A stretch of 64,000 bases of DNA from Acidobacteriota bacterium. GTDB lineage: Bacteria > Acidobacteriota > Vicinamibacteria > Vicinamibacterales > 2-12-FULL-66-21. The notes under the pieces are model-generated. The model made no database searches. It saw nothing but the letters and a program-made list of their open reading frames with translations, and was not told where the DNA came from. The stretch spans positions 8,384 to 72,383 of the forward strand of contig JBKPCD010000144.1 of the NCBI GenBank assembly GCA_046727175.1. Direction: 5' to 3'. Shown here in pieces: positions 3,892-63,063 of this stretch. Position 1 is the first letter of the stretch, and every line of letters begins with the position of its first letter. Both the position numbers and the translations under genes were made by a program.

Positions 3892-4128
3892 AGTTCCCTT
3901 TTCCCTTTCCCTTATCTTCTTTCGCTTATCTGCTTCACCGCCTTCACTACGCTCACAGAGAATCTTGTTTTCTCTTTTCTCCATTTCTCCTGTAAATCCT
4001 CTTCTCCCGCGCTCCTGTTCGCCGAATTATGCGCGAAGCATCTGCAGCAGATCCATCCGGCGTTGGATGACATATGCTCGGACTACGGATGCTGAAAACG
4101 CCAGCCTGGTTCCAAAATTCTCAGCCCA

Positions 4129-5556
4129 ATGCCCCGAAGCGCGAAGCTCCTCTTTGTTTCCGCCATGGCCGTCCTCCTCATGGCACAACGGCACGGGCCG
4201 TCGGTGCTGCCGCCGGATCCCGCAACAGATCTCGTCCGCACTCGCGCGTTTCTCACGACGACCGCCCCGACGCTCGATCTGTCAATCGACGGTGCGCTCC
4301 TCGGGAATGCGGTGTTCTCGATTCAGCGCGGCCTGTCGACAGTGCGATTCACCATCGATCGAAACACGATTCGGATGACGGGAAGCCAGCAAGGGGCGTC
4401 AACGGACGCCGTCATCGACATGATTCTCGCTCAGGTTCCGGCCGGGTCCACAATCGGCTGGACCCTTTCCGCCCCGCAATCCGCGAGCACTCGGCTCGAC
4501 GTGCGCAATGTCAACGCGTCCGAAGCGCCTGTCGACGTCTTTGACCTGAACGGTGCGGCAGGCCGCTACACGAGCCAGTCGGACCTGCTTCGTCGCAACG
4601 GTCCGATTGGACCGATCCGTGGCGTGAACAGCCGGCTGGTGCTCGCGTTTTTCTACCCATGGTGGGACCGCGCAGGGTGGGCGAGCCCGCTGTTCATCGA
4701 TGCACCACTACAACCGTACTCCACTGACGATCCTGCCGACCTCGCGCGGGTCATGAGTCAGGCGAAGAGCGCCGGGCTCGATGCGCTCGTCGTGTCGTGG
4801 GCGGGCAAAGACTACGCAGGAGGAATCGATCACCGGCGGATGCTGGCGTGCCTCACGGCGGCACAGACGGCCGGCACGAAGGTCGCCGCGCTCCTCGAAG
4901 CCACGGCCGCGAATCCGCAGCACGAGGACGGCGCCGCGGATCCCGATACCGTCTTCCGCTGGCTGGTGGACATCGTCGACAACTACGCGCCGCAGTCCGC
5001 CTATCTTCGCGTCGGCGGTCGTCCGGTCGTGATGGCGTACGCCGCGCAGCGCATGTCGCAGGCAGGATGGGCCGACGCCCTGAGTCGATTGCGTGCGAGC
5101 GGCCGAGACGTCCTGATGATCGGCGAGGGCATCAACGCGACGAGGCTCGGCGCGCTCGATGCGCTCTTTTACTATCCGTCGAACGACTTTCAGGGCGACA
5201 CGATTCGCGATTTCGATCGGACGCAAAGCGTCAGTGTTCGAACATATCACTTGCTACCCAACGACACCGGCATACGCAGGATCTGGGTCGCCACCGTCAG
5301 CCCCGGGTATGACGACACCCATCTGACGGATGGCCGCGTGCCGCGCGTCACCGACCGGGAGGGCGGCGCGTATTACGACCGTCAGTGGCAGGCCGCAATC
5401 GACCTGCGAGCCGACTGGATTGTAGTGACGACGTGGAACGAGTGGCTCGAGAACACCGAGATCGAGCCGAGCGTCCGGTACGGGGATCTGTATCTGACGA
5501 AGACGCGCACCTGGGCGGCCAAGTTTCATGAAAACCACGCGGTGGCGCGCCCGTAA
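4129..5556 (+). CDS. Secreted protein with a C-terminal GH99-like glycoside hydrolase domain
   Basis: Signal-peptide-like N-terminus. The C-terminal half has VLAFFYPWW, LVVSWAG, TVSPGYDDTH and VVTTWNEWLENTEIEPS, which resemble GH99-like domains. The N-terminal ~170 aa are unassigned. Confidence 0.5.
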   Translation: MPRSAKLLFVSAMAVLLMAQRHGPSVLPPDPATDLVRTRAFLTTTAPTLDLSIDGALLGNAVFSIQRGLSTVRFTIDRNTIRMTGSQQGASTDAVIDMILAQVPAGSTIGWTLSAPQSASTRLDVRNVNASEAPVDVFDLNGAAGRYTSQSDLLRRNGPIGPIRGVNSRLVLAFFYPWWDRAGWASPLFIDAPLQPYSTDDPADLARVMSQAKSAGLDALVVSWAGKDYAGGIDHRRMLACLTAAQTAGTKVAALLEATAANPQHEDGAADPDTVFRWLVDIVDNYAPQSAYLRVGGRPVVMAYAAQRMSQAGWADALSRLRASGRDVLMIGEGINATRLGALDALFYYPSNDFQGDTIRDFDRTQSVSVRTYHLLPNDTGIRRIWVATVSPGYDDTHLTDGRVPRVTDREGGAYYDRQWQAAIDLRADWIVVTTWNEWLENTEIEPSVRYGDLYLTKTRTWAAKFHENHAVARP

Positions 5557-5671
5557 TGGAAAGTGGAAAGTGGAAAGGGAAAAGGGAAAAGGGATAAGGG
5601 AAAAAAGGACCCAGTCTTCGCCGTTTGCCTTTTTCCTTTTCCTTGGCCCTTGTCCCTTGTCCCTTGTCCCC
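5557..5671. repeat. Purine/pyrimidine microsatellite hairpin filling the whole convergent spacer
   Basis: The left arm 5557-5608 is built of GGAAAGT/GGGAAAA/GGGATAA units. Loop 5609-5627. The right arm 5628-5671 is built of CCTTTTT/CCCTTGT units complementary to the left arm. Confidence 0.9.
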
Positions 5672-8140
5672 CTACTCGTACCTCAGCGCCAGAATCGGAT
5701 CGACGCGGCTCGCTCGGCGGGCGGGCAGCCAGACGGCCAGCAACGCGACGGCGGCGAGCACGAGGGGGACCGCTGTGAACACCAGCGGATCCCGCGGGGT
5801 GACGCCGAAGAGCAGCGTCGCCATCAGTCGTGTCAGCCCAAAAGCTGATGCGAGTCCGATCGCGACTCCGACGAGCGTCAACCGGAGGCCCTGCCACACG
5901 ACCATGTTCTTCACCTGACTCGCGTCGGCGCCGAGCGCGAGGCGAATACCGAGCTCCGGCGTGCGCTGCGCGACCGAGTACGCCATCAGCCCGTAGATGC
6001 CAATCGCGGCCAGCAGCAGCGCAGCACTGCCGAACACGGTCATGAGCCACATGTAGAAGCGGTCGCGCGATGTCGACAGCGAGACCACTTCGCTCATCGG
6101 GCGAACATCGGTGACGGGCACACCGGTCGCCTGGCGCAACCGTTCCTGGATGGCGGCGCTGAACGCATGCGGTTCGCCGCGTGTTCGGATCACCCAGGCC
6201 ATCGGCGTCAAACGCACGTTCAAGGCGTTCGCGGCGTCGGGCACCTGCGCCTGCGGTATGTACATCGTCGGCTGCGGATCGCTGTTGAGACCACCATCCC
6301 GGATGTCGCTCACCACACCGATGATGTGGCGCTCGGGCTCGTCCTTGAACTCGCGCATCGGTCCCCGTCCGATCGCAAGTCGATCGTTGAGCGGATCGCT
6401 GTTCGGCCAATACCGGCGCGCCATGGATTCGTTGATGATCACTACGGCCGGTGACTGGCCGGTATCCCGATCGGTGAAGGTGCGTCCTCGCTTGACGGCG
6501 ATTCTGAAGACTTCGAAGTATCCGGGCGAAACTGTCAGCCAGCCGCCTCCACCGTGCGAGGGACCCTCGAGAGGACGGCCAACAATGATGAACGGAAGGC
6601 CGTAACCGCCTTCGAGCGGAACACAACACGCCGCGCTCGCCAGCTCGACGCCGGGCACCGCACGAAGCTGCTCTACGCCTTGGCGAATGAGCTGATCGAC
6701 GCCCTCCGATTTCGAAAACTGAGGTCCCGTCAACGACATCTTCATCGTCAGTACGTTCTGAACGTCGAACCCCGGATCTACGGCGCGCAGCGCTATCGAC
6801 GTGCGGATGAGCAATGCCGATCCGACCAGCAGAATGACGGCGAGCGCCACTTCGCTGACCACCAGCAGTGCGCGCGTCTTGTTCTGCCGCACACCAGCAC
6901 CCGAGCGTGCGCCGCTGTTCTTCAGCGTGGCGCTCACGTCGGTGCGCGAGCCGTGCAACGCGGGAATCAGCCCGAACAGGATTCCCGTTCCTGCCGACAC
7001 AATCGTCGTGAACGCGACAACACGCCAATCAAGGCCAACCAGCGACCCGTCCCGGCCGACGCGCGGCAAACCGGCCATGTTGATCGCCAGCAGTGCGCGT
7101 ATGCCGATGGTGCCGAGAAACAGACCGACTGCGCCTCCGGTCGCCGAGAGCACGACGCTCTCGGTCAGCATTTGACGAATGATTCGGCCGCGTCCGGCGC
7201 CGATTGCCGAGCGAACGGCAATCTCCCGCCGCCGACTCGTCGCGCGCACGAGAAGCAAGTTGGCGACGTTTGCGCACGCAATGAGCAGAACGAAGCTGAC
7301 TGCGCCCACGAGCACGAGCAGGGACGACCGCACGTTGCTGACGATCGCCTGCTGAAGGGGCTGCACGGTAAAGCTGCGGTTCGGCCCAATCGCGTTGGGA
7401 AACTTCTGCCGGAATTCAGCTCCGGACAGCTGGAGACGCGCCTTCGCCTGATCGAGGGATACCCGAGGCTTCAGACGGCCCATCACTCTGAAGTAGTGCA
7501 GCTGATTGTTGGTATTCGGGTCGAGTTGAAACGGCACCCAGACGTCCGGTGGCTGGCCGAACTCCTGAACGTCGAACGCCTCTCCGAGCACGCCGATGAC
7601 AACGTACGGATCGCCACTGAGCACGAGCGTCTTGCCAATCACGGCGGGATCGCGGTCGAAGCGCCGCGTCCAGACCCGGTAGCCGAGCACAGCGACTTTG
7701 TCGCCATTGGGACGATCCTCGTCGGCGTTGAACGTGCGGCCGAGAACGACAGGCGCGCCGAGCAGGCGAAAGTAATCGGCAGACACCTGCCCGGATCGCA
7801 GCTGCTCGGGAACCGCGCCTGCGGTGTAGTTGACCACGCCCATTCGGAATGCCGAGACGTCCTGAGCGACATCGGCCTGCTGGCGATAGTGCTGAAACTT
7901 CGCGGGCGACGCCGCCGATCCCGTGCCTTGCGGCGAGCTGTTCAGGAACATCACGATGCGATCGGGATCGGGAAACGGCATTGGCTTCAACATGACCGCA
8001 TTCACAACCGAGAAGATGGCTGTGTTGGCGCCGATGCCGAGTGCCAGTGCGGCCACGGCGGCAGCGGTGAACCCGGGACTCTGGCGGAACATCCGAAGAG
8101 AGTGCTTCAGATCGCGGAAGAAGCCTTCAAGAGAGGTCAT
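5672..8140 (-). CDS. ADOP-family duplicated orphan permease (MacB-like, two FtsX halves)
   Basis: ~822 aa from the internal ATG at 8140 (MTSLEGFFRDLKHSLRMFRQSPGFTAAAV), the canonical ADOP N-terminus. Two MacB_PCD/FtsX modules. The track ORF extends to 8296 across a repeat element, which I reject. Confidence 0.85.
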   Translation of the reverse strand: MTSLEGFFRDLKHSLRMFRQSPGFTAAAVAALALGIGANTAIFSVVNAVMLKPMPFPDPDRIVMFLNSSPQGTGSAASPAKFQHYRQQADVAQDVSAFRMGVVNYTAGAVPEQLRSGQVSADYFRLLGAPVVLGRTFNADEDRPNGDKVAVLGYRVWTRRFDRDPAVIGKTLVLSGDPYVVIGVLGEAFDVQEFGQPPDVWVPFQLDPNTNNQLHYFRVMGRLKPRVSLDQAKARLQLSGAEFRQKFPNAIGPNRSFTVQPLQQAIVSNVRSSLLVLVGAVSFVLLIACANVANLLLVRATSRRREIAVRSAIGAGRGRIIRQMLTESVVLSATGGAVGLFLGTIGIRALLAINMAGLPRVGRDGSLVGLDWRVVAFTTIVSAGTGILFGLIPALHGSRTDVSATLKNSGARSGAGVRQNKTRALLVVSEVALAVILLVGSALLIRTSIALRAVDPGFDVQNVLTMKMSLTGPQFSKSEGVDQLIRQGVEQLRAVPGVELASAACCVPLEGGYGLPFIIVGRPLEGPSHGGGGWLTVSPGYFEVFRIAVKRGRTFTDRDTGQSPAVVIINESMARRYWPNSDPLNDRLAIGRGPMREFKDEPERHIIGVVSDIRDGGLNSDPQPTMYIPQAQVPDAANALNVRLTPMAWVIRTRGEPHAFSAAIQERLRQATGVPVTDVRPMSEVVSLSTSRDRFYMWLMTVFGSAALLLAAIGIYGLMAYSVAQRTPELGIRLALGADASQVKNMVVWQGLRLTLVGVAIGLASAFGLTRLMATLLFGVTPRDPLVFTAVPLVLAAVALLAVWLPARRASRVDPILALRYE

Positions 8141-8223
8141 GGTGGTTGGACGTGAACGGCGCGGAAGAAGTTGAATAGGTTCTGAGGCCTGGCCGAGATA
8201 GCGCAGACGAGCACCGTTTCCAG

Positions 8224-8379
8224 CAGGATGCTGAAAAACGCATCCTGCGTGAGGTTCCCGGTTCACAGGTTCCCAGTTCCCGGTTTTGGTTCTCATTACG
8301 GCGCAGAACCAGCACTTTCGAACCGGGAACCGGGAACGGGGAACCGGTGAACCTCGCTGGCCGCGGTTTTTCAGCGGCC
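8224..8379. repeat. Three-hairpin modular intergenic element (conserved termini, GGAACC-type core)
   Basis: 5' module CAGGATGCTGAAAAACGCATCCTG (8224-8247). Core arms 8251-8292 (GGTTCCC units) and 8320-8355 (GGGAACC units). 3' module GGCCGCGGTTTTTCAGCGGCC (8359-8379). The terminal loops TGAAAAAC and GTTTTTCA are reverse complements. Confidence 0.9.
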
Positions 8380-8387
8380 CGTTAGGG

Positions 8388-9180: not shown

Positions 9181-11022
9181 TTAACAAGATTTGCAGCGGT
9201 GGTTGTTCTTGGCACCGAGCTTCTCGAGTAGCGCGATGGTTTCGGGGAATGGCTGGATCCGCTGCACCGGGCCGTTTGCCATGTCCACGGTGGTTTCGCC
9301 GGCACGGTTCACAGCCTTCACGTCCGCCCCTTTTGACACGAGGTAGAGGATCATCTCGTTATCACCTCGCGCCGCCGCATGGTGGAGCGCGGTATTCCCC
9401 TCGTGATCACGCGCATTCACATCGGCGCCGAGCTCCTCGACCAGGTACTTCACGGCTGGCAGCCATCCGCTCGGGGCATTGCGGTGCGAGTTGGCGGCAA
9501 ACCCCTCGCCGTAGCCGACGCCCGTGGCGGCCTGTAACGGCGGCACGCCGGGCCCGCCGATCGGCAACGGCGGCACGCCCGACACATCCTCGACCGTCTC
9601 GCGTCCTCCATCTCCGGTGCGCGGCCGACCCGCGGGCTTGACCGTCGGGATGTTCGGATCCGCGCCATACGAAATCAGGAGCCGCATCGCATCGACGTCG
9701 CTCGCGTACGCGGCGCGCCAGAAGGGCGTCGCGCCGATCTCGTCCACGCCCGAGAGATCGAAGTTGTATCCCGAGTACCAGACCTTCTTCTTCAATCGCG
9801 CGTTGACGTCGACGCCTTCTTCCAGCAGCATCTTCATCAGGTCGAGGTACGCCAGCTTCTGCTGAAGGTATGCGCGAGGCTGCGGGTACAACGCCTTGGG
9901 CGCCCACTGCACGTTCAGCACTGCGTAGAGGGGCGTGACGCCGTTATCGCTTGCGAGCTGAGGATCGGCCCCCTTCTCCAGCAGCAGAGCCGCGAGGTCG
10001 AACTGGCCGTTGATGATCGCCATCAGCAGCGGGCTCGTCGCGTCGCTGCCTGCGACACGATTGATCTCCGCGCCTGAGTCGAGGAGCACCTTCACCGCCT
10101 CGATGCGCCCTTGACGGGCGGCGAACAACAACGGGGTGAGGCCCCCCTGTGCAGTGACGAGCTCGGCGAAACGGAACTGACGGCTCACACCGGCAACGCC
10201 TCCCTGGGCCCCGCCGTCACGACCACTGCGACCGCGCTGCGCGCCGTCGTCTGCCGGCTGCGCCGCGACTGACGCCGCTTCCGCGGGAGTGTTGCCGGTC
10301 GTCGGCGCTGCATTCGGCCTGGCTTCAGGCGAGGGAGACGAGGCGGAATCGGGAGGCGCGGCACCGCGCGCGGCGCGGCCACCGCCGCGACCGCTCTGCT
10401 GCGCGCGCAGGAACGCTTCTTCTTCGGCGTTCGTCTGTCCTCTCAGGTCGGTCACCTTGCTCGCGAGCTGAATGTCGGCGCCAGCGGCGATCAGCACTTT
10501 CATCGCGTCGAGGCGATTCGAGGCCGCCGCGAACATCAGGGCGGTTTCACCTCTGACGGATTCCTTTGCGTTCACGTCAGCGCCGTGCTCGACGAGTACC
10601 TTGACCGCGTCCGGCTTTCCTGCCGCCGCGGCGAGCATCACGGCCGTCGTCCCGTTCGTCGTGGCGCTCTTGGGATCGGCGCCGGCCTTGATCAGCGTCT
10701 CGATGACTGCGGCGTGTCCCAGCTCGCTTGCCATCAGCAGCGGCGTGTATGCACCCAGCCGCGTCGTTGCCTTGATGTTGGCGCCGGCGTAGATCAGCAT
10801 CTGCGCGAGCTCCGCGTCGCCGTGACGTGCCGCCCAGTGCAACGCCGTCGTGCCGTCGCCCTGCGGGGCGTTCACGTCCGCACCTTGCCTGAGCAGTGCG
10901 CGGACTGCCGCGGCGTCGCCGAGCAGCGCTGCGTCCGCCACGCGCGATTCGCCCGATGATGCCGACAGTAGGCCGTTCAGGCACAGCGCCGCGAGCAGAC
11001 CACATACGCTGATGCGTTGCAT
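9181..11022 (-). CDS. Secreted ankyrin-repeat protein
   Basis: Start at MQRISVCGLLAALCLNGLLSA (signal peptide). Many ANK units (GTTALHWAARHGD..LL..GADVNA pattern) are split by a low-complexity Ala/Pro/Gly linker. It ends in HRCKSC. Confidence 0.85.
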   Translation of the reverse strand: MQRISVCGLLAALCLNGLLSASSGESRVADAALLGDAAAVRALLRQGADVNAPQGDGTTALHWAARHGDAELAQMLIYAGANIKATTRLGAYTPLLMASELGHAAVIETLIKAGADPKSATTNGTTAVMLAAAAGKPDAVKVLVEHGADVNAKESVRGETALMFAAASNRLDAMKVLIAAGADIQLASKVTDLRGQTNAEEEAFLRAQQSGRGGGRAARGAAPPDSASSPSPEARPNAAPTTGNTPAEAASVAAQPADDGAQRGRSGRDGGAQGGVAGVSRQFRFAELVTAQGGLTPLLFAARQGRIEAVKVLLDSGAEINRVAGSDATSPLLMAIINGQFDLAALLLEKGADPQLASDNGVTPLYAVLNVQWAPKALYPQPRAYLQQKLAYLDLMKMLLEEGVDVNARLKKKVWYSGYNFDLSGVDEIGATPFWRAAYASDVDAMRLLISYGADPNIPTVKPAGRPRTGDGGRETVEDVSGVPPLPIGGPGVPPLQAATGVGYGEGFAANSHRNAPSGWLPAVKYLVEELGADVNARDHEGNTALHHAAARGDNEMILYLVSKGADVKAVNRAGETTVDMANGPVQRIQPFPETIALLEKLGAKNNHRCKSC

Positions 11023-11036
11023 ATCGCTACTCCACA

Positions 11037-11123
11037 GAAAGTAAGAAGTTCGAAGTACGAAGTGAGAAGTAAAAGCTTCGCGACTCAAATCGGTCGTTCT
11101 TCACCTCTTACTTCTTACTTTCC
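11037..11123. repeat. Microsatellite hairpin (GAAGTAA-type units)
   Basis: GAAAGTAAGAAGTTCGAAGTACGAAGTGAGAAGTAAAAG ... TTCTTCACCTCTTACTTCTTACTTTCC, between the ankyrin gene start and the DUF1552 gene stop. Confidence 0.85.
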
Positions 11124-11126
11124 AAT

Positions 11127-12533
11127 TCATCCCGCCTCGGTCAGTGATGGCACGCCGGTCAGGTCGAACGCTCCGGTGCTGTCGCCGAAACGCTGGAGAT
11201 CGTCGAGGCCCAGGTCGTGGAGCAGCCTCAGCATCACGTTGGCCATCGGTGTGCCGTCAGGCGCCTTGACGTGCAGGTTCCCCTTCAGGTGGCCGTTCGC
11301 GCGGCCGGCGAGGAACAGCGGGCAACGCTTGTGATTGTGGACGTTCGAGTTCCCCATTGGCGATCCGTAGATGACGAGGGTCTTGTCGAGGAGGTTGCCA
11401 TCGCCTTCCCGCAGGTTCTTCAGCTTCTCGAGGAAGTACGGCACCAGGCTGACGTGGTGCTTGTTGATCTGCGCGAACTGCACAATGCGATCTTCGCGCT
11501 CGCCGTGATGCGACGCAGGATGGAACGGCAGGTTCACACCGCTCGCCGGATAGACGCGTGCCGAACCGTCACGTCCGAGCTTGAACGTGAACACGCGTGT
11601 GATGTCGGCCGCAAACGCCAGCGCCTGCAGATCGAACATCAACTTCACGTGGTCCTCGAACGAGTCGGGCACCCCAAGCGGCGCACCGGGCAGCTCCCGC
11701 TGCTCGCCACTGCTGTTGTACGCCTCGACCTTCTGGATCCGCCGCTCGATCTCGCGGATGTCGTTCAGGTACTCGCTCAGTCTGGTGCGATCGGTTGGTC
11801 CAAGATCGCGTGCGAGCCTTGCGACTTCGCCCGTCACCCAGTCGAGGATGCTGCGATTGGTCCGTCGGTTCTCCGCGCGCTGCTCGGGCGTCGCCCCCAC
11901 GCCGAACAACTGATCGAACGCGGCACGCGGATCGCGGACCATCGGGAGCGGCTCGGTTGGCGACGCCCAGCTGATCGTGTCGGTGTACACGCAAGCGTAC
12001 CCGTACGCGCAGCCGCCGGACTGATCGACGTTCTCGATGCACAGCTGCATCGACGGGATGGGCGTGTCCTGACCGAATCGTTGCGCGTACAGCTGATCGA
12101 TCGACGTGCCGACGTAGACGTCCGACCCTTCGGTCTGCCTCGGATGTGCCTGCGTGAGGAAGACTGCGCTCGAGCGGAAGTGGTCGCCGCCGATCTCTTT
12201 CGGCTGGAACGCCTCCGCGTTTCGCACATCGGTGTTGCTGACGATCGTGATGTAGTCGCGGACTGGTTCGAGCGGACTCAGACTGCTCGGCGAGAGGTCG
12301 AACGCACGACCGACAGCTGCCGGAGACCACATGTTCTTGGCGAGGCCATGCACCGTGCTTCCGGCTGCGCCATGCACCATCTCGATACAGGAGAAGCGTG
12401 TCCGGCCTGCCGCCGCCGTCTTGGCCAGCAACGTTCGCGCCGGCACCATCGCGTCCAGGAGCGGCAGGGCGATCGTCGCCCCCATTCCGCGAAGCACGGT
12501 CCGGCGTGAGATGTGCTTTTTCGTCAGATACAT
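11127..12533 (-). CDS. DUF1552 domain protein with a TAT signal
   Basis: Start at MYLTKKHISRRTVLRGMGATIALPLLDAM, with GAGGAG 7 nt upstream. Length and N-terminus are typical of DUF1552. It is paired with a DUF1592-type gene immediately upstream. Confidence 0.8.
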   Translation of the reverse strand: MYLTKKHISRRTVLRGMGATIALPLLDAMVPARTLLAKTAAAGRTRFSCIEMVHGAAGSTVHGLAKNMWSPAAVGRAFDLSPSSLSPLEPVRDYITIVSNTDVRNAEAFQPKEIGGDHFRSSAVFLTQAHPRQTEGSDVYVGTSIDQLYAQRFGQDTPIPSMQLCIENVDQSGGCAYGYACVYTDTISWASPTEPLPMVRDPRAAFDQLFGVGATPEQRAENRRTNRSILDWVTGEVARLARDLGPTDRTRLSEYLNDIREIERRIQKVEAYNSSGEQRELPGAPLGVPDSFEDHVKLMFDLQALAFAADITRVFTFKLGRDGSARVYPASGVNLPFHPASHHGEREDRIVQFAQINKHHVSLVPYFLEKLKNLREGDGNLLDKTLVIYGSPMGNSNVHNHKRCPLFLAGRANGHLKGNLHVKAPDGTPMANVMLRLLHDLGLDDLQRFGDSTGAFDLTGVPSLTEAG

Positions 12534-12565
12534 TGCCGACTCCTCTGCTGTCACTGTCCGCGTCT

Positions 12566-12776
12566 CGGAATTCGGGGTTCGGGATTCGCTAGCGTTCTTG
12601 CTTCGCCGGCCGGCCTCACACAGGAGGTCACGAGAAGGAGAACTACCTGTAGTTTCTCCTGGGTTCCTGGTCTCCTGTATTTATCTCGGCAGCCGCAAAC
12701 GTCTCAGACGCCGATTTTCGAACCCCGCCCTCCGACTCACCCGTAACGAACCCGAACCCCGAATCCCGAACCCCGG
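12566..12776. repeat. Nested palindromes: outer GGGTTCG-type arms enclosing an inner CAGGAG-type hairpin
   Basis: Outer arms: CGGAATTCGGGGTTCGGGATTCG (12566-12588) vs CGAACCCGAACCCCGAATCCCGAACCCCGG (12747-12776). Inner arms: ACAGGAGGTCACGAGAAGGAGAACTAC (12620-12646) vs CTGTAGTTTCTCCTGGGTTCCTGGTCTCCTGT (12647-12678). Confidence 0.85.
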
Positions 12777-12877
12777 CCTTCCGAGCTACAAAACTAGCTT
12801 TTCTCAGCGCGCGAGGGGCCCACCCCCGCGCGCTGCGGCTCGACTCGCTTCGCTCGCTCGCCGCGGCCGCAGGCGCT

Positions 12878-12901
12878 GCTACCGAGCTACCGAGCTACCG
12901 G
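12878..12901. repeat. Tandem 9-nt repeat CTACCGAGC x about 2.5, overlapping the DUF1592 stop codon
   Basis: GCTACCGAGCTACCGAGCTACCGG. The complementary unit GGCTCGGTAG recurs at 52058-52110. Confidence 0.85.
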
Positions 12902-15367
12902 CCGCGTCGGTTCGACCAGCCGCGTCATGTCGTTATTCGTCATCTCCGCCCGGCTCATTTGAAACGCCGGGCTCTTCACGATCCCGAGCACGAACTGCGC
13001 GAACCGATGGTCGGGCGCGGCCTGGCGGACGATCCCACGAACGGTCGGCATGTCGTAGTACTCGACACGTCGCCCGAGACTGTACGCGAGCAGGTTCTCG
13101 GTGAAGGTGCGCAGCACGACGTCCTGCCGCTTCAGGAGCGCCTCGCGCAACGCAATCGGACCGTTCAACACTGAGCCGTCGTAGAGCTCACCCGAGGCGT
13201 CGACGGGCACACCGTTGTCGCGCATGCGCCACACACCCGTGACGTCGAAGTTCTCGAGCGCGAGGCCGAGCGGATCGATGACCCGGTGACAGGAGCGGCA
13301 CTGGGGATTCGAGCGATGCTGCTCCATCCGCTGACGGACCGAGAGCAGCCGTCCGTCCTTGTTTGCCTTCGTCTCCTCGAGATCGGGCACGTCGGGCGGA
13401 GGAGCCGGCGGCGGCGAACCGAGCAACACTTCGAGCACCCATTTGCCCCGCAACACCGGCGACGTCCGGTCCGCGACCGACGTCATCGTGAGAATGCTGC
13501 CCTGACCGAGGAGCCCACGCCGGTTCTCGTCGGTCAGCGCCACCCGCTGGAAGCCCGTGCCCACGACGTTCGGAATGCCGTAATGCCGCGCGAGCCGCTC
13601 GTTGACGAACGTGTAGTCGGCCGTCAACAGCTCCAGCACGTTGCGGTCCTCGCGGACGACGTGCTCGAAGAGGAGCTCGGTTTCGCGCTGCATCGCTTCG
13701 GCAAGCGTGTGATCGAATTGCGGATAGAACAGCGGATCGGGATGAATCTTCTCGAGGTCCTGGAGACGCAGCCACTGCGACGCGAACCTCGTCGCGAGCG
13801 CGGACGACCGCGGGTCCGCGAGCATGCGGTGCACCTGCGCCTCGAGAACGGCCGGCGTTCTCAGGATTCCCTTGCGTGCGGCCGTCAGCAGATCTTCATC
13901 GGGCGGACTCGCCCAGAGGAAGAACGACAGCCGCGACGCAAGATCGAGATCGCTGACTCGATAGTTCTGACCTGGTCTCGCGCTCGACGGCATTTCCTCG
14001 AGACGGAAGATGAAGTGAGGGCTCGCGAGAATCGCTTGCAGCGCGGAGCGGATTCCATGCTCGAAGTCCCCCTGCTTGCGGCCATCCTCGAAAAACCCCA
14101 GCAGTCCCTTCTGATCCTCGGGTGTGAGGGGCCGCCTGTACGCCTGGCGCGCGAGTGTCGAGATGATCTTCGACGCGCAAGCGGCTTCCTCCTCGCGCGC
14201 CACCGGCCGGCAGCTGAAGATCCGGCGGCGGCTCGGCGTCTCGGAAATGCCTGTGACCTTGTGCGGGCCCATCACCGCCAGATCGCGCAGGTGCGGCAGG
14301 GTTGTCACGCCAATGGCGCTGCCGATCTGCGTGTCGGCCAGCGTGTGCTCGATGGGCGCGATCAAGTCGTCCACCGGTCCCTCGGATCGCTGGAGGAACG
14401 CGGCGGAAACACGCTGCGGTCCGGCCTTGACCACGATCGGCGGCGTCTGAAGGTTCATCCCGTTCGGATCCGACTCGCTCATGCGCGGGTTGATCTCGAA
14501 AAGCGCAACGCGCTCGCCGTTGATGGACACTTCGAGCTGCTCGTTGCGCGCCGTACTCCCGTACAGCTGACCCGTCGGGATGGAGTGCAGCATCATCCTG
14601 AACGTGTACTCGCCGTCAGCGGCGAAATTGTGGATGACCGAGAGGCCGCCGCGAGTCCCGAACGGCGCCCCCTCGACGTGCGCGAGCTGCGACGCGGTCC
14701 GCGCGACGCGATAGGTCGTCGAGCTCGGCGTCGCGTCGCGATCGCCGATGGCCTCGCGGCTGATCGTGCTCGCGGCGCGGAGGTACCCTTCCAGCAGCGT
14801 TGGCGAGAACACCTGCACGTCGGCAATGTTGTCGAAGTTGTGACTGATCGTGTCGAGCGGCAGGAACGCGGAGACGTCGACGTCGATCCCGAGCAGGTCG
14901 CGAATCGATCGCGCGTACTCGGCGCGATTCAGCCGCTGGAACGTGCGTCTGCCGGGATTCGGCCGAACAGCTGCCGCTTGATCGAGACGCGTTTCGAGCG
15001 ACGTCGCAAGCGCGACGAGCGTCGATGATTCAGGGCGTTCCGCGCCCGCGGGCGGCATGAGGCCCGCGCGCAGCTTGCGGATCATCTTCTCGGCGAGTTC
15101 CGGGTGTTGCTCAGCGCGTGCGGGGTCGAACTTCTCGAGAATCAGGCCGCCTTTCTCGTGGTCAGCATCGTGGCATCGGAGGCAGTACTCGTCGATCACG
15201 TCGCGCAGCGACGCGGCGGGCGATGTTGCCGCCGCATGTGCCACGGCTATCGGAATCGGAGGCTTCACGCTGTGTGCTGGTGCCGGACCGCTAGCCCGCT
15301 GTGCGAGGGGTGTCGCCGCCGCGACGGCGAGGATCAGTGAACTGACGGCGGCTGTGGGGGCTTTCAT
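12887..15367 (-). CDS. DUF1587/DUF1592/DUF1595/DUF1588/DUF1585 multidomain protein with two CxxCH motifs
   Basis: 826 aa with a signal peptide. Motifs: CLRCHDADHEKGG, FFLWASPPDEDLL, RLARHYGIP, CRSCHRVIDPLGLALENFD. This is the classic partner of DUF1552. Confidence 0.85.
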   Translation of the reverse strand: MKAPTAAVSSLILAVAAATPLAQRASGPAPAHSVKPPIPIAVAHAAATSPAASLRDVIDEYCLRCHDADHEKGGLILEKFDPARAEQHPELAEKMIRKLRAGLMPPAGAERPESSTLVALATSLETRLDQAAAVRPNPGRRTFQRLNRAEYARSIRDLLGIDVDVSAFLPLDTISHNFDNIADVQVFSPTLLEGYLRAASTISREAIGDRDATPSSTTYRVARTASQLAHVEGAPFGTRGGLSVIHNFAADGEYTFRMMLHSIPTGQLYGSTARNEQLEVSINGERVALFEINPRMSESDPNGMNLQTPPIVVKAGPQRVSAAFLQRSEGPVDDLIAPIEHTLADTQIGSAIGVTTLPHLRDLAVMGPHKVTGISETPSRRRIFSCRPVAREEEAACASKIISTLARQAYRRPLTPEDQKGLLGFFEDGRKQGDFEHGIRSALQAILASPHFIFRLEEMPSSARPGQNYRVSDLDLASRLSFFLWASPPDEDLLTAARKGILRTPAVLEAQVHRMLADPRSSALATRFASQWLRLQDLEKIHPDPLFYPQFDHTLAEAMQRETELLFEHVVREDRNVLELLTADYTFVNERLARHYGIPNVVGTGFQRVALTDENRRGLLGQGSILTMTSVADRTSPVLRGKWVLEVLLGSPPPAPPPDVPDLEETKANKDGRLLSVRQRMEQHRSNPQCRSCHRVIDPLGLALENFDVTGVWRMRDNGVPVDASGELYDGSVLNGPIALREALLKRQDVVLRTFTENLLAYSLGRRVEYYDMPTVRGIVRQAAPDHRFAQFVLGIVKSPAFQMSRAEMTNNDMTRLVEPTRPVAR

Positions 15368-15563
15368 CCAGATCGACCTACGAAGGACACAAACCCATCG
15401 CGCAGTATACGGCCGGATTGGGCCGATTGGAGCCCGGTTTTCAGCATCGAGGCCGCCGCGCGCCGAGCTTCAAGCCCGGCCTGTCTTCGACGGGCTGACG
15501 TGCTGACGACACGCGCATTTCACGCGGTCCACTGCGCGACACCCAACAGAGACATCCACCCGT

Positions 15564-15628
15564 GGCTGTCCCGTTTGGCTGTCCCGGTTGGCTGTCCCGG
15601 TTGGCTGTCCCGAGTGGCTGGCACCGGC
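15564..15628. repeat. Tandem 13-nt repeat GGCTGTCCCGGTT x about 4.5
   Basis: Unit starts at 15564, 15577, 15590, 15603 and 15616 (the last is degenerate). It lies ~200 nt upstream of the DUF1592 start and directly downstream of the creatininase-like stop. Confidence 0.9.
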
Positions 15629-15640
15629 GCCTGTCCCCTT

Positions 15641-21779: not shown

Positions 21780-21786
21780 CAAACAA

Positions 21787-22989: not shown

Positions 22990-23058
22990 ACAGGAGATGA
23001 GAAGATCAGGAGTCATTTTTGTTTGGGAAAATGCACTCCTGGCCTCCTGATCTCCTGT
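22990..23058. repeat. CAGGAGAT-type hairpin in the divergent glxA-like/ADOP promoter region
   Basis: ACAGGAGATGAGAAGATCAGGAGT (22990-23013), 21-nt AT-rich loop, ACTCCTGGCCTCCTGATCTCCTGT (23035-23058). Confidence 0.85.
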
Positions 23059-28625: not shown

Positions 28626-28649
28626 ATTGGATAGCCATATCACGGCTCA

Positions 28650-42849: not shown

Positions 42850-42859
42850 ATGACAGTGC

Positions 42860-49971: not shown

Positions 49972-49983
49972 GATGTTCGCTCA

Positions 49984-50101
49984 CAGGATGCTGAAAACGC
50001 ATTCTGAATGGCAGAGGGTAAATGGAAAATGGAAAAAACCTGAGCACTTTGCCATCTCCCATTTGCCATTTTCCATCAGGCCGGTTCTCTTTCAGTGGCC
50101 T
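49984..50101. repeat. Three-hairpin modular intergenic element, copy 2 (near-identical to 21835-21945)
   Basis: CAGGATGCTGAAAACGCATTCTG + AATGGCAGAGGGTAAATGGAAAATGGAAAAAACCTGAGCACTTTGCCATCTCCCATTTGCCATTTTCCATC + AGGCCGGTTCTCTTTCAGTGGCCT. A 37-nt exact match to copy 1: TTTGCCATCTCCCATTTGCCATTTTCCATCAGGCCGG. Confidence 0.9.
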
Positions 50102-50125
50102 GCTAATCAACAGTGAGCGTGACCG

Positions 50126-52048: not shown

Positions 52049-52057
52049 GCGTCGCCG

Positions 52058-52110
52058 GTAGCTTGGTGGGCTCGGTGGCTCGGTAGTTCGGTGGCTCGGT
52101 AGCTCGCTTT
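52058..52110. repeat. Tandem GGCTCGGT(A/G)G-type units
   Basis: GGTAGCTTGGTGGGCTCGGTGGCTCGGTAGTTCGGTGGCTCGGTAGCTCG. This is the reverse complement of the unit at 12878-12901. Confidence 0.85.
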
Positions 52111-52154
52111 CGTGCCGGGATTCGGGGTTTGTGGCTCGGGAACAGCCCGCTTTG

Positions 52155-52360
52155 ATCCGCGGACATCTGCGAAAATCCGCGTCTCGTACGAACTCTTCAG
52201 ATCCGCGTCAATCCGCGAGAATCCGCGTCTCGTCGGTAGGTTTATCCGCGGACATCCGCGAAAATCCGCGTCTCGTGTGAAGGTCCTATCCGCGGACGTT
52301 CGCGGAAATCCGCGTCTCGTCGGAGGTCTTCTGCTCCGCCTCCATCCGCGTAAATCCGCG
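52155..52360. repeat. Array of 14 ATCCGCG heptamers in five clusters with strict 10-bp internal spacing
   Basis: Heptamers (two degenerate) start at 52155/65/75, 52201/11/21, 52244/54/64, 52288/98/308 and 52344/54. The cluster consensus is ATCCGCGGACATCCGCGAAAATCCGCGTCTCGT. Clusters are spaced 43-56 nt apart. The array spans the stop codon of the DAACS gene. Confidence 0.9.
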
Positions 52361-53587
52361 TCTCAGCCCGACGAGCGCCGCCAGTGCCATATCCGCCGTA
52401 ACGTTGGCCGTCGTGCGAAACGCGTTCGGAATCGGATCGACGGCCAGCAGCATCCCGATTGATTCCGCGGGAAGACCGGCGGCCATCATGACCGGCAGCA
52501 CGACGTAGACCGATCCGCTGGGCACGCCGCCCACCGTAAAACTGGCGAGCACGGCGACGAGCACCGTCTGCACCAGCCGCGGCGCGTCGAGCGGCACGCC
52601 GTACAGCCGGGCGACGAAGCAGACAACGGTCAGGAACCAGATCGGCGACGCGTACTTGAACATCGCGACGGCCAGCGGCAGCACGACCCCGCTCACCGCG
52701 GACGGCACCCGAAGCACGGTTCCCGCGCCCTCGAGCAGGGCCGGCAGCGAGGCGAGCGAGGAATGCGTGCTGAACGCCATCACCTGCGCGGGCGCGGCCG
52801 CTCGCGCGAAGTCGCGCGCCCTGCAACATCCTGCAAGACCCACGAGCGGATACAGCGCACTCGTAAACACGATCTGCGCGACGGATGCCGTGACCACGTA
52901 GAACAGGATCGCGCTCACAATCGAGACGCCGAGCTGCAGCATCATGCCCAGCGCCAGCGCGAACACTCCGATCGGCGCAGCGGCGACGACCCACGACAGG
53001 ACGATCGTCATCGTGGCGTCGACGGCAGCGAAGAAGCGGACGATGGGCTCCCGCCGGTCGACGGCGAGGCGTCCGAGCGCGAGGCTGAAGACGATCGTGA
53101 AGACGAGCAGCGGCAGCATCGCGCCATCGGCTGCGGCTTTCAGCGCGTTGGTCGGAATCAGGCTCGTAATCCAGCTCTCGAACGACGGGTTAGCCGTCGC
53201 CGGTGTCGCCGTGCCTGCGGACCTGGCCCGAAGCGTTTCGGTGACCGCTGGATCGACCGGCATGCGAGCGAACACGGAAGGCATCACGGCCCCGCTTATT
53301 GCGCCCGGGATGAGAAGGAGGGCGATCATCAGCGCGGCCGCGCGGACTCCTGCGCGCCGCACGAGGTCCGTGTTCCCCCCGCTCGCGAGCACGATGATCA
53401 CTTTCGAGACGACGAGCGGGACGATCGTCATCAGGATGGCGTTGATCCACAAGGTGCCGGTGATCCCGACGATCGATTCGACGAACGTGCGTGGCGGGTT
53501 CGGCAGGGTCGTCATGCCGGCGCCGACGATGACCCCAGCGACGAGCGCAGCGAGCGCCTGCGTGCCGACACTGCGTGTGCTCCGCAT
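52286..53587 (-). CDS. Dicarboxylate/amino acid:cation symporter (DAACS/SDF family)
   Basis: Start at MRSTRSVGTQALAALVAGVIVGAG. SDF-type motif AAGLPAESIGMLLAVDPIPNAFRTTANVTADMA. The last ~25 codons are encoded by the ATCCGCG repeat array. Confidence 0.85.
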   Translation of the reverse strand: MRSTRSVGTQALAALVAGVIVGAGMTTLPNPPRTFVESIVGITGTLWINAILMTIVPLVVSKVIIVLASGGNTDLVRRAGVRAAALMIALLLIPGAISGAVMPSVFARMPVDPAVTETLRARSAGTATPATANPSFESWITSLIPTNALKAAADGAMLPLLVFTIVFSLALGRLAVDRREPIVRFFAAVDATMTIVLSWVVAAAPIGVFALALGMMLQLGVSIVSAILFYVVTASVAQIVFTSALYPLVGLAGCCRARDFARAAAPAQVMAFSTHSSLASLPALLEGAGTVLRVPSAVSGVVLPLAVAMFKYASPIWFLTVVCFVARLYGVPLDAPRLVQTVLVAVLASFTVGGVPSGSVYVVLPVMMAAGLPAESIGMLLAVDPIPNAFRTTANVTADMALAALVGLRRGFTRMEAEQKTSDETRISANVRG

Positions 53588-53652
53588 CGCGCGCGAGTGT
53601 ATCAGCACCTCAGATACTGCGCAGGCGGAAATTCCCCGCCGGCCGCCACTCA

Positions 53653-53676
53653 CAGGAGATCAGGAGGTCAGGAGAT
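53653..53676. repeat. CAGGAGAT-unit run
   Basis: CAGGAGATCAGGAGGTCAGGAGAT lies between the GNAT stop and the DAACS start. The same unit family occurs at 22990-23058, 39478-39502 and 12620-12678. Confidence 0.8.
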
Positions 53677-60441: not shown

Positions 60442-60459
60442 AGGACCCTCCCACACCCG

Positions 60460-61482: not shown

Positions 61483-61493
61483 CTTAGGCCTGT

Positions 61494-61575
61494 GGCTTTT
61501 GGCTTGGGGGCTTTTTGGGCTTCGTGCTTTTAGGCCTTTGGCGGGCGCAGAGCCACGAGCCTCGAGCCATGAGCC
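61494..61575. repeat. GGCTTTT-type / GAGCCA-type degenerate unit run
   Basis: GGCTTTTGGCTTGGGGGCTTTTTGGGCTTCGTGCTTTTAGGCCTTTGGCGGG followed by CAGAGCCACGAGCCTCGAGCCATGAGCC. Confidence 0.7.
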
Positions 61576-62993
61576 TACTGTTTTCGATGCACCCACACGC
61601 TGTCGAAGAGCGGCGCCGGCGCGCCTCGCACGTCGGCAATGACGGCATGACGCGATTGGACAATGGGAATCCCGAGCGCCGCGGTGATGTCACGCAGCGC
61701 GGGGCGTGCCTCGTTGTGAACGAGCGCGCCGTCCGGTGCGAGCATGCCGGCGATGTTGCTCATCGCAAGCATCAGCTCCGCATCATCGAAATACGGAAGG
61801 ATGTTTGTCGCGATGATCAAGTCGAATGGCTGTCCGTCGAGACGTTCGGTGACGATGTCGACCGGCTCGGCGGTCAGGACGTGCGCGGCGGCTGACCCGA
61901 CTCGCACCGTCTTCTCCAGGTGGCCCGCCGTTGACGCCGTGCGCCGGCGCTCCGACGCTTCGTCCCCAATCGATCTCCCGAGCCGTTCAAAGTAGTCGCG
62001 ATATTCCTGCCGCAGCTTTACCGTCTCGCTCTCCGCAATCCCGCTGACCAGCGTCAACACCGGCGGCGTGCGGTGTGAGTCGCGCAGGTGCTCGACCACA
62101 CGCGGATTGATGTCGGCGCCGACAACCGCGAGATCGTCGGCGCCAGCGAGACCGAGGGACAGGAGCGCGTCGATTACCGCCCACGGCTGGTAGCTCTCCG
62201 GCGGACCATCTTCCAGGAGTCCCGTCCTTGGAGCGAGGTCGAGCCCTGGCCCCACGATCAGCACGCGACGGATGCGGCGATCGGGCTCCAGAGACTGGAG
62301 CACGCCCAAGCCAAGATACACGACGTATCCCGCCTCGACAGCGGTGTCGGTGCTGAGGCCGCGCGTGCGATACAGCTCCGCGATCGCGTCAGCTGCCTGC
62401 GCGGAGCGTTGCGCGACGAACTCCTTTTCATGGACGAACCGCATCGCCCGCACGTATTCGCGAAGGAGTCCCGCATTCCGTTCACGGCGATCGGGATACG
62501 TCGCGTTCACGAGGCTGCGGAAGTAGGCGAGCCGCGGATCGGACGCCGGCGAATCGATCGCGCGCAGGAGCGCAGCCGCGCGCGAGCGAACCGGCGCGGG
62601 GATCCGGGAGAGATCGAGCCGGGACGTCCGCAGGAACTCCGTGCGTTCCTGCACGTCGAGGCCGTCGACAAGTGCCTTCGCGCTGAGTGCCGGCTCGATC
62701 GGCGGAAGCGATGTGAACCGCATCGACTGGAGCAGATAGAAGACGAGGTGATCGAGGTCCCCTTCGCGAACCCGTCGCAGATTCGTCTGGCGCACCCGCT
62801 CGACGTACGACGGGAACTCGTCCGCCGTGATGCCGCGAGCGCTGAGCGGCACGTGGAAAGGGGCCACGTCGGTCCAACTGATTCGCCTGACCGACAGGCG
62901 GTCTTGATCGTCGGTAGCGGTGGCCGTGCACGTGATGACCACCCATACCAATCCACAGACCGCCGCAGTCGAGAGAACTCGGGCGCGCAGCAC
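61575..62993 (-). CDS. Hypothetical protein with a C-terminal class I SAM-methyltransferase-like (CheR-like) region and an N-terminal signal/anchor
   Basis: RVLIVGPGLDLAPR..VVGADINPRVVEHL..FDLIIATNILPYFDDAELMLAMSNIAGMLAPDGALVHNE. The N-terminal 200 aa are unassigned. Confidence 0.5.
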   Translation of the reverse strand: MLRARVLSTAAVCGLVWVVITCTATATDDQDRLSVRRISWTDVAPFHVPLSARGITADEFPSYVERVRQTNLRRVREGDLDHLVFYLLQSMRFTSLPPIEPALSAKALVDGLDVQERTEFLRTSRLDLSRIPAPVRSRAAALLRAIDSPASDPRLAYFRSLVNATYPDRRERNAGLLREYVRAMRFVHEKEFVAQRSAQAADAIAELYRTRGLSTDTAVEAGYVVYLGLGVLQSLEPDRRIRRVLIVGPGLDLAPRTGLLEDGPPESYQPWAVIDALLSLGLAGADDLAVVGADINPRVVEHLRDSHRTPPVLTLVSGIAESETVKLRQEYRDYFERLGRSIGDEASERRRTASTAGHLEKTVRVGSAAAHVLTAEPVDIVTERLDGQPFDLIIATNILPYFDDAELMLAMSNIAGMLAPDGALVHNEARPALRDITAALGIPIVQSRHAVIADVRGAPAPLFDSVWVHRKQ

Positions 62994-63014
62994 CGCATTC
63001 AGCGCTGTGGATTC

Positions 63015-63063
63015 GGGGCGATTCCCTCGCCGCCCCGAACCCTGAACCCTGAACCTTGAACTT
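63015..63063. repeat. Small GC hairpin plus a GAACCCT x3-4 tandem
   Basis: GGGGCG-ATTCCCTCGC-CGCCCC, then GAACCCTGAACCCTGAACCTTGAACTT, running up to the stop of the TonB-dependent receptor gene. Confidence 0.8.

Follow-up and report, generated by a model that had tools for sequence, protein, structure and literature searches.

Bacterial head-to-tail heptamer repeats came to notice in 1990, and 2007 brought documentation of their excess; to our knowledge, both their origin and their function are still unexplained. Cyanobacterial short tandemly repeated repetitive (STRR) sequences (Calothrix, Nostoc) comprise several heptanucleotide units per genome and are intergenic and lineage-limited, and we know of no function established for them over decades. 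Here we describe repeats of this kind in a 64,000-nt stretch of DNA (the window) from an uncultured soil Acidobacteriota bacterium (Vicinamibacterales; GenBank assembly GCA_046727175.1, contig JBKPCD010000144.1, positions 8,384 to 72,383 of the forward strand), where most intergenic spacers carry arrays of a 7- or 8-nt unit, many paired with an array of the complementary unit. We favor the reading, at a probability of roughly 0.55, that these are fast-evolving simple-sequence-repeat (SSR) hairpins that persist just past stop codons and owe their origin to slippage together with the copying of small palindromic elements.

The closest described case is the Xanthomonas GGGAATC repeat, followed by the cyanobacterial STRR. 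The Xanthomonas heptamers (Rehm et al. 2015) are intergenic in a GC-rich genome, most are transcribed, and 70-75 cases are convergent, stem-loop-capable array pairs (PMC4692102). Close species differ in the length and sequence of these repeats but as a rule retain the type, single or inverted pair (PMC4692102). The window likewise holds intergenic tandem heptamers in inverted pairs, and its units GGGATTC and GGGGTTC are near-identical in style. In contrast to the essentially single unit family of Xanthomonas, at least ten families occur here, including 8-mers and many units incapable of forming a G-quadruplex (G4). Nested layers, stop-codon anchoring and an enclosure resembling a dimer of repetitive extragenic palindromes (REPs) are features of the window that are undescribed for the Xanthomonas repeats, and the phylum differs. 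The window resembles STRR in having several intergenic, lineage-limited heptamer units; unlike STRR, pairing is the common state, whereas in Nostoc only few heptamer arrays are paired as inverted repeats (PMC4692102). The TAACTGA repeats of marine Beggiatoaceae consist of one unit, lie mainly just upstream of start codons and almost never form inverted pairs (PMC4679880); they share with the window an abundance of intergenic direct heptamer repeats and a patchy phylogenetic spread, and their anchoring is the opposite (start versus stop codon). The arrays belong to this known, poorly understood class of heptanucleotide repeats (STRR, Xanthomonas) and are not a new kind of system. What is new is that such repeats occur in this phylum, in so many unit families, nested, partly within a REP-dimer-like frame and tightly anchored at stop codons. 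No report of such repeats in Acidobacteria or Vicinamibacterales was found by full-text literature search, the coverage of which does not extend to all journals.

Short-period arrays at gene 3′ ends

Tandem Repeats Finder (TRF) identifies 17 period-7 and 11 period-8 arrays in the window. Genes were called with a self-trained codon model, whose stops are firm and some of whose starts are approximate, leaving 28 spacers of at least 40 bp with a total length of 6.4 kb; the tests of array excess cover the window and the sampled loci introduced below. For 19 of the 28 spacers, the best tandem score was matched by no more than 8 of 200 dinucleotide shuffles, with best periods of 7 (nine spacers), 8 (five), then 14, 15, 13 and 12. 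An initial annotation of this DNA, made from the sequence by eye, had placed arrays in about 18 of about 29 spacers of 60 bp or more; the abundance it described is borne out. Nearly all positions that it listed coincide with TRF period-7/8 arrays (5557, 8254/8320, 11039/11097, 12565/12747, 12655, 12878, 21893, 23036, 25681, 28768, 30290, 39479, 50048, 52056, 53653, 61550, 63033); the arrays it placed at 20475 and 52124 are degenerate and not significant alone.

The periodicity is a property of non-coding DNA. Among 150-nt segments, 21 of 47 intergenic versus 7 of 343 coding segments score at least 9, and period 7 or 8 is found in none of the high-scoring coding segments. Once merged, 25 of 28 period-7/8 arrays fall in the non-coding 10.7% of the window (P = 1.4e-21), and arrays of periods 6, 9 and 12 are mostly inside genes. 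Period 7 is also the outlier in 242 kb of Vicinamibacterales-like contigs, with 70 arrays versus 12 of period 6, 21 of period 8 and 39 of period 9. Head-to-tail 7-nt units with a mainly intergenic, above-chance occurrence place the arrays among heptanucleotide SSR/STRR-type repeats. As had been noticed initially, the elements are less GC-rich than coding DNA (0.553 versus 0.643; remaining intergenic DNA, 0.614).

Inspection of array positions reveals a consistent anchoring to stop codons. All 14 co-directional elements lie nearer to the upstream stop than to the next start, with median distances of 1 versus 44.5 nt (Wilcoxon p = 0.001). Arrays are present in all three convergent spacers and in 14 of the 22 co-directional ones, and a 7/8-nt array is present in one of the three divergent spacers (22990-23058). 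Two convergent spacers are filled from stop to stop (5557-5671, 25647-25967), and in some cases the array unit itself supplies the stop codon (12887 in the window; GGTAGTT in relative L207 and five copies of TAGGGAC in relative L214). The elements persist on harmless ground only, between the upstream stop, which they abut and in places provide, and a point shortly ahead of the next ribosome-binding site or promoter. The initial annotation argued that arrays occur in all spacer types and hence are not simply terminators. With a single divergent case and co-directional elements that hug the upstream stop, the argument does not hold and leaves its conclusion weak; the elements belong to the 3′ ends of genes.

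Consensus terminators (stem plus T-run) show no excess in the window, where 11, 14 and 10 sites were found against 13.5, 11.3 and 12.4 expected. None of the flagged sites is an array-arm hairpin, and one short 8-bp stem (39494-39512) overlaps the solo array at 39479. Like intrinsic terminators, the array hairpins are stable stem-loops directly past the stop, usable both ways in convergent spacers. Unlike them, they have no U-tract, and their stems are much longer, repetitive and, rather than GC-rich, lower in GC than the genome; several elements also lie inside a conserved operon, though just past a stop, and one occupies a divergent spacer.

Pairing was assessed against 100 shuffles. In 11 spacers, about 12 array pairs are more complementary than every shuffle or almost every one. 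The paired spacers have fold z-scores of -2.4 to -6.7 versus shuffles and also top the list of an inverted-repeat finder. As in Xanthomonas-type inverted heptamer pairs, these are close, opposite-strand, stem-loop-capable arrays of one unit. The architecture first described for all the listed loci (array, loop, complementary array) stands for these pairs and does not extend to nine partnerless arrays (3894, 12838, 12878, 20475, 39479, 39525, 52056, 52120, 53653) or, with any strength, to two weak pairs (28650/28768, 61490/61550). Some hairpins are nested, with GGGTTCG arms around CAGGAGGT at 12558-12776, ATCAGTG arms around ATCCTCGA at 25650-25966 and three layers at 21786-21970. The two arms frequently differ in length, and only 4 of 17 hairpins show a significant mirror order of unit variants, indicating that arms change independently once formed; the same count led us to reject arms as simple recent inverted duplicates.

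The constant period could instead reflect periodic protein-binding sites or non-B DNA, the hairpin being incidental, and candidates include a cold-shock-type protein that reads single strands in 7-nt steps, a nucleoid protein, or G4/i-motif structures as proposed for Xanthomonas GGGAATC. Such a reading accommodates a fixed period with variable sequence and the resemblance of units GGGAAAA, GGGATTC and GGGGTTC to those of Xanthomonas and Nostoc (PMC4692102), and binding of one cold-shock protein per heptamer has been discussed (PMC4679880). All four G4-type motifs in the 64 kb (G3+N1-7 x4, either strand; 5577, 5647, 12751, 63024) lie within arrays. These are, however, the only four stretches to qualify among about 30 arrays, and the G4 explanation was rejected on that count; most units (CAGGAGAT, GAAGTAA, ATCCTCGA, AATGGCA) are incapable of G4 formation and depart from the G-rich GGGNNNN units of the Xanthomonas type. 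There is moreover no motif common to the units, many units in other lineages are AT-rich (AGATTTT in locus L070), and no candidate protein was identified, and we regard binding sites or non-B DNA as a very improbable explanation. Two further candidates were rejected: 7-nt units as providers of stop codons in all three frames, which fails as a general rule with the stop-free GGAAAGT and TTCCCTT arrays, and CsrA-type GGA motifs, which are present in some units only.

The arrays and hairpins of the window are as follows (fold z, fold z-score versus shuffles; MITE, miniature inverted-repeat transposable element).

3894-3935: solo TTCCCTT array (alternatively a 14-mer), 2 nt past the stop of gene 2734-3891 (+ strand); no complementary arm nearby; unit family that of 5557-5670
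5557-5670: hairpin filling a convergent spacer stop to stop, about seven copies of GGAAAGN (5557-5604) and CCTTKTC (5632-5670); both arms G4- or i-motif-capable; fold z -2.8
8222-8387: framed element (REP-dimer/MITE-like), left hairpin CAGGATGC-TGAAAAAC-GCATCCTG at 8224-8247, right hairpin 8359-8379, GGTTCCC arms 8251-8285 and 8321-8355, tail CGTTAGGG abutting the stop at 8388; fold z -6.7
11037-11122: hairpin with GAAGTAN arms within a conserved operon, exactly occupying the gap from the DUF1552 stop (11127) to the Shine-Dalgarno site and start (11022) of an ankyrin gene, both site and ATG being conserved in L207; fold z -3.2
12558-12900: nested composite in an operon-internal spacer, outer GGGTTCG/CGAACCC arms 12558-12588 and 12747-12776, inner CAGGAGGT/TCTCCTGG hairpin at about 12618-12679, GC-rich hairpin at about 12800-12840, and GCTACCGA array 12878-12900 whose unit provides the DUF1592 gene with its TAG stop (12887; unit GGTAGCT); fold z -3.9
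15563-15637: array of 4.5 copies of the 13-mer TGGCTGTCCCGGT, 93% matches, 3 nt past a creatininase-family stop; its period is atypical, outside the 7/8-nt rule
21786-21970: three nested layers, outer GAAGTTA arms 21786-21809 and 21947-21970, frame hairpins 21835-21858 and 21922-21946, inner AATGGMA/TKCCATT arms 21859-21921; fold z -6.7
22990-23058: CAGGAGAT/ATCTCCTG hairpin in a divergent spacer, 44 nt from an AraC-family gene start; fold z -4.5
25650-25966: nested hairpin filling a convergent spacer, outer ATCAGTG-type arms 25650-25675 and 25937-25966, inner arms of 18 copies of ATCCTCGA (25681-25821) versus a TCGAGGAT-type arm (25881-25925); fold z -6.6
28650-28788: an array of GGCTCA and one of AAGAGCC, with weak complementarity, 2 nt from the stop at 28791
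30239-30323: GGTTCCG/CGGAACC hairpin, 1 nt from the stop at 30325, arms of 38 nt that are 87% complementary, loop of 7 nt; fold z -5.7
37175-37222: GGCTC/GAGCC hairpin, 1 nt past the stop at 37173
39479-39553: solo array of 2.8 copies of CAGGAGAC, 13 nt past the stop, then 3.2 copies of the 9-mer TGGCCTTCG; no complementary arm
49983-50106: framed element (REP-dimer/MITE-like) with AAATGGA/TTTGCCA arms, a near-copy of 21833-21949, kept in strains L001-L003
52056-52140: solo array of six copies of CGGTAGCT, 7 nt past the stop at 52048, then a degenerate GGGATTC stretch
53653-53676: solo array of three copies of CAGGAGAT, touching the stop at 53676
61490-61576: GGCTTTT-type stretch and an array of 3.7 copies of GAGCCAC overlapping the stop at 61575, the arms pairing through G-U pairs only, on the + strand; fold z -2.4
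62998-63061: GGATTCGGGG/CCCCGAACCCTGAACCC hairpin with an array of four GAACCCT copies, 1 nt from the stop at 63063; fold z -2.4

Several observations accompany this catalog. Arrays of the TTCCCTT/AAAGGGA family (3894-3935, 5557-5604) flank a GH99-like gene (4129-5556) in inverted orientation. The octamer CAGGAGAT/ATCTCCTG (12620, 22990, 39479, 53653) is Shine-Dalgarno-like on one strand and anti-Shine-Dalgarno-like on the other, such that the hairpin at 22990-23058 pairs the two kinds of repeat 44 nt upstream of the AraC-family gene. At 52155-52364, 4.7 copies (74% matches) of a 46-nt tandem repeat, whose unit consists of three ATCCGCG(N3) 10-mers, start in a convergent spacer and reach into the sodium:dicarboxylate symporter open reading frame (52286-53653, - strand) at its 3′ end; with a fixed 7-mer every 10 nt, this repeat recalls an array of protein-binding sites more than it does the heptamer hairpins. 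Two long spacers, 31663-32364 (702 nt, upstream of a TonB-type receptor gene) and 42850-43357 (508 nt), contain no 7/8-nt arrays and no Rfam match at gathering score, and no Rfam family reached that score anywhere in the window. The longest-frame starts of genes 5672-8296, 9181-11088 and 25968-28643 run into or across repeat arrays; the codon model, Pfam domain offsets and orthologs place the true starts further downstream, at about 8140, 11022 and at most 28604. With a GC content of 64%, the window has a gene content typical of Acidobacteriota, including by Pfam four MacB/FtsX "ADOP"-type permeases, a DUF1592-DUF1552 pair, a TonB-type outer-membrane barrel and many glycoside hydrolases, and the nearest named homologs are from Vicinamibacterales.

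Recurring units and a framed element

The initial annotation regarded the units as private to each locus. Inspection of unit sharing contradicts this, in that units recur at unlinked loci above chance and sometimes have common boundaries. With hairpin partners collapsed, the octamer units of seven loci form 6 pairs within one mismatch versus 0.13 expected, and the heptamer units of 14 loci form 8 versus 1.8 expected. Exact unit dimers were too rare across loci to inform, and single-linkage clustering of heptamers at one mismatch chains everything and was left unused. All four CAGGAGAT loci start with ACAGGAGR, and the copies at 12600 and 53630 have the upstream flank CGCCGGCCG.CC.C.CAC in common. 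The irregular unit TTCACAGGTTCC is common to the GGTTCC hairpins at 8251(-8285) and 30239(-30323), and the succession of TCGAGGAT and ATCAGTG is found both at 25881-25966 and, in relative L207, in a different spacer.

These recurrences bear on whether each spacer could make its own array by slippage and fold-back or template switching, with no transfer between loci. Consistent with such a local origin are the difference in copy number inside one array between near-identical genomes (described below), the higher-order repeat in the ATCCTCGA array, the units that include the local stop codon and the unequal arms. As the sole cause it is contradicted by units that recur at unlinked loci far above chance, by shared boundaries, flanks and module order, and by a framed element with at least 19 distinct copies across contigs; we therefore consider purely local origin quite unlikely.

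The framed element is represented in the window by three hairpins (8222-8387, 21833-21949, 49983-50106), each enclosed in a conserved frame. The left frame hairpin is CAGGATGC-TGAAAAAC-GCATCCTG, and the right one is its inverted counterpart with a different stem (CAGGCCG...CGGCCTG); both have the loop TGAAAAAC and CTAG/GTAG-like ends, the outer ends read CTAGCAGG...CCTGCTAG, and the core between them consists of heptamer repeats. Remnants of the frame lie near 4086-4103 and 15433-15450. A metagenome scan with the left hairpin identified about 30 soil copies. Complete, distinct copies number at least 19 across all loci and the window, 17 on other metagenome or metagenome-assembled genome (MAG) contigs (among loci L089-L193) and 2 in the window. 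The element is about 110-165 nt long, with most complete copies at 109-126 nt and shorter ones of 50, 50 and 85 nt; the distance between the two hairpins ranges from 50 to 154 nt, and the longest copy is 8222-8387, with its longer arms. The arms are mostly ATGGCAN heptamers, and two copies (L116, L158) are without a repeat core. The outer tail is CTAG in most copies and GGTAG in a few (L130, L150, L167), which is GTAG-like, not identical. TA is present at the left end of 15 and the right end of 17 of the 19 copies, where it belongs to the palindromic CTAG terminus and hence is not separable from it.

The framed hairpins are a dispersed element resembling a REP dimer or a MITE. Like REPs, bacterial interspersed mosaic elements (BIMEs) and REP doublets forming hairpins (REPINs), the many dispersed, extragenic copies are each an inverted pair of hairpins with different stems; the hairpins are 24-nt imperfect palindromes arranged as inverted heterodimers around a structured spacer (compare PMC3733652), and their outer CTAG/GTAG-like tail resembles the conserved terminal tetranucleotide of REPs (GTAG or CGTC) without being identical to it. 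Unlike REPs, most copies end in CTAG and not in GTAG, a heptamer-repeat hairpin makes up the spacer that separates the two frame hairpins, and most array hairpins of the window have no frame. Correia/NEMIS-type MITEs are gene-adjacent elements of ~110-165 bp with ~18-20 bp terminal inverted repeats, TA ends and a long-hairpin fold, all of which the framed element shares, its left end GCAGGATGCTGAAAAA matching the reverse complement of its right end GCAGGCCGCTGAAAAA over ~18-20 nt. In contrast to these MITEs (for general MITE features, see PMC3184786), the TA of the framed element is inseparable from its CTAG terminus, its interior consists of short tandem repeats and it has no known parent insertion sequence.

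The frame motif is absent from 80 diverse Acidobacteriota loci (1.27 Mb, obtained by a profile scan for the ADOP permease in species-representative genomes) and is thus specific to one lineage. Viral contigs gave no match to the frame or to the CAGGAGAT array. Rfam has no family for the element, a permissive search of 49900-50200 returning only a chance eukaryotic match, and a curated Rfam RNA family is ruled out by the lack of any gathering-score match. Within the frame family, arm complementarity is 13.8 within a copy and barely lower, 10.6, between copies; the gap is small because most copies share ATGGCAN units, and a clear preference for the arm of the same copy is seen only in window 8222 and L091, the two copies whose units differ. 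Since three hairpins of the window lie within this dispersed element, copying of several small element families is probably part of the cause, in keeping with the original view that the pattern is not the spread of one single element.

Turnover in relatives and other lineages

The DUF1592-DUF1552-ankyrin operon (window 11127-15367) is syntenic in eight relatives with 84-92% protein identity. Its two spacers measure 332 and 104 nt in the window versus -4 to 89 and 3 to 114 nt in the relatives, as listed here (first and second spacer, in nt).

Window: 332 and 104
L207: 89 and 49
L210: 83 and 33
L211: 50 and 114
L213: 19 and 7
P0009 contig: 18 and 6
L212: 5 and 3
L214: -4 and 46

These lengths indicate a tight ancestral operon (spacers of about 0-20 nt) and an expansion in some lineages only. 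The content of the orthologous spacers differs as well, from plain GC-rich hairpins in L210 and L211 to a solo heptamer array in L214 and nested arrays in the window. Spacer 2 of L207 holds a single frame-type hairpin, and its spacer 1 a series of unpaired arrays (GGTAGCT, GGGATTC, TCGAGGAT, ATCAGTG), of which the TCGAGGAT-ATCAGTG order is that of the right half of the window hairpin at 25881-25966, a different locus. 

Strain comparisons reveal replacement and size change over shorter distances. Strain L001, at 98-99% identity in two aligned segments and 89% across the SDF gene adjoining the spacer, has a frame hairpin and a GGTTCC array where the window has a CAGGAGAT array. Compared with window positions 52049-53675, L001 (4616-9470) also contains, between orthologs of the window genes, additional Tricorn/PD40 and kinase gene fragments plus one further gene of 160 aa, with insert junctions that coincide with array-bearing spacers. 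Exact protein matches identify NCBI MAG GCA_046735855.1 and Joint Genome Institute (JGI) soil metagenomes as the same species. A 99.8%-identical MAG of this species has 82 nt fewer inside the ATCCTCGA array (25681-25821), which itself has a 30-nt higher-order period at 95% identity (TRF). Of the local slippage and fold-back mechanism first proposed for the window, slippage is supported by this difference, the 30-nt period and the unequal arms; the local identity of units on which it was based gives way to modules that recur and are probably copied.

Beyond the species, heptamer hairpins of this architecture, each lineage having its own unit, occur in several lineages (L070, L043, L026, L042, L052, L046, L007), with units such as AGATTTT/AAAATCA in L070 (Pyrinomonadaceae), GGTTCAG/CTGAACC in L043 and CAGCCAT/GGCTGAC in L042 (Blastocatellia). 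Spacers read directly in L070, L043 and L026 are filled from the stop to the next ATG; in L042 the array hairpin is present and the downstream start was not identified. Across loci, 29 of 37 paired arrays have the stop of a long open reading frame within 40 nt. The pattern is thus not confined to the window, being found with other units in Pyrinomonadaceae, Blastocatellia and other MAGs. Many lineages are array-free, a period-7 array lies just downstream of the matched gene in only 6 of 68 loci, and the close relatives L211 and L212 have almost no arrays. Tandem repeats are prone to mis-assembly, and the 82-nt difference between assemblies could be one such error. The elements of the window nonetheless recur in independent assemblies (the NCBI MAG and three JGI metagenomes), and the architecture is present in dozens of unrelated MAGs, including contigs over 1 Mb, such that an assembly or sequencing artifact is effectively refuted.

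The same comparisons give weight to a strong rival, in which the hairpins are selfish or neutral DNA: MITE or REPIN families that spread and decay, functionless, and are found next to stops only since selection purges them elsewhere. In its favor are a patchy, lineage-limited distribution, the shortness (3-20 nt) of the orthologous spacers of close relatives, and the fact that related strains can carry unlike elements in one and the same spacer. So are the TA flanks and terminal inverted repeats that the framed element possesses, and the absence of strand asymmetry in fold stability. Set against it, the DNA between stop and element is almost always gone (0-4 nt) with the hairpin kept, which suggests hairpin retention, and hairpins arose independently at the same operon spacer in L210, L211, L207 and the window. 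Canonical terminators are not there as an alternative, and Pfam finds no transposase among the window genes. On balance we hold selfish or neutral spread to be possible and well short of probable.

Origin and role of the hairpins

In our preferred explanation, slippage combined with copying and persistence past stop codons, a limited vocabulary of short palindromic and array modules would be copied to new spacers, a step partly visible in the recurring units and frame copies. One such module would be the element with TA/CTAG-flanked terminal hairpins and REP-dimer/MITE-like anatomy. Slipped-strand mispairing could then lengthen or shorten each arm where it lies, by one unit or several at a time, and the stem would survive changes of unit because both arms carry the same unit and can re-pair in any register. 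Selection may remove whatever disturbs the coding sequence or the next start region, leaving elements pressed against the stop. The arrays probably act as transcript 3′-end hairpins, a role made plausible by their position and by the lack of canonical terminators. On the transcript, 3′ stem-loops without a U-tract might terminate or pause transcription or block 3′ exonucleases. Such a role could extend between the genes of one operon, as for REP elements in E. coli; REPs stabilize upstream mRNA and sit between genes of one operon (PMC3733652, PMC3333891).

A number of observations weigh against this explanation. No transposase, including the REP-associated tyrosine transposase (RAYT, a Y1 transposase), was found among the window genes scanned against Pfam, and no clean empty site was seen, orthologous spacers differing by wholesale replacement; mobility is for these reasons deduced from copy patterns alone. 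The stems have no following U-tract, and direct reading of the sequence shows T-runs to be absent downstream. About a third of arrays have no complementary arm. Fold energy shows no sense versus antisense bias in 37 hairpins, so nothing points specifically to RNA-level selection; the comparison is evidence neither for nor against RNA function. That spacers of 3-20 nt suffice for close relatives at the corresponding positions speaks against any essential function at those sites. The 82-nt difference fits slippage, yet could be a collapse in short-read assembly. Finally, this explanation does not account for the period of 7 or 8.

That period is the starting point of a bolder proposal, which we consider unlikely, wherein a constant 7/8-nt step is set by a molecular ruler and array stems are the main system that ends or stabilizes transcripts. 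Such a ruler would be an enzyme of replication or repair that duplicates DNA in 7-nt steps, or else a protein that reads RNA or single-stranded DNA in such steps. The proposal draws on a period that is independent of the unit and recurs in Acidobacteriota, cyanobacteria and Xanthomonas. For the heptamer excess, the literature has hypothesized that the polymerase has a preference in slippage (PMC4679880, PMC4692102). If true, register-tolerant, stop-anchored stems would replace canonical hairpin-plus-U terminators in array-rich lineages.

Arrays like these may mislead gene-start calls in Acidobacteriota MAGs (8296 versus 8140 and 11088 versus 11022 in the window), and array-bearing spacers likely break or collapse short-read assemblies. 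Both the density and the variety of repeats in this window, from a soil lineage that is uncultured, are unusual, with at least ten unit families, nesting, strict stop anchoring and rapid turnover between close relatives. Array-rich and array-poor sister lineages that carry the same operons constitute a comparative system for the 7-nt period and for the role of these repeats at transcript ends.

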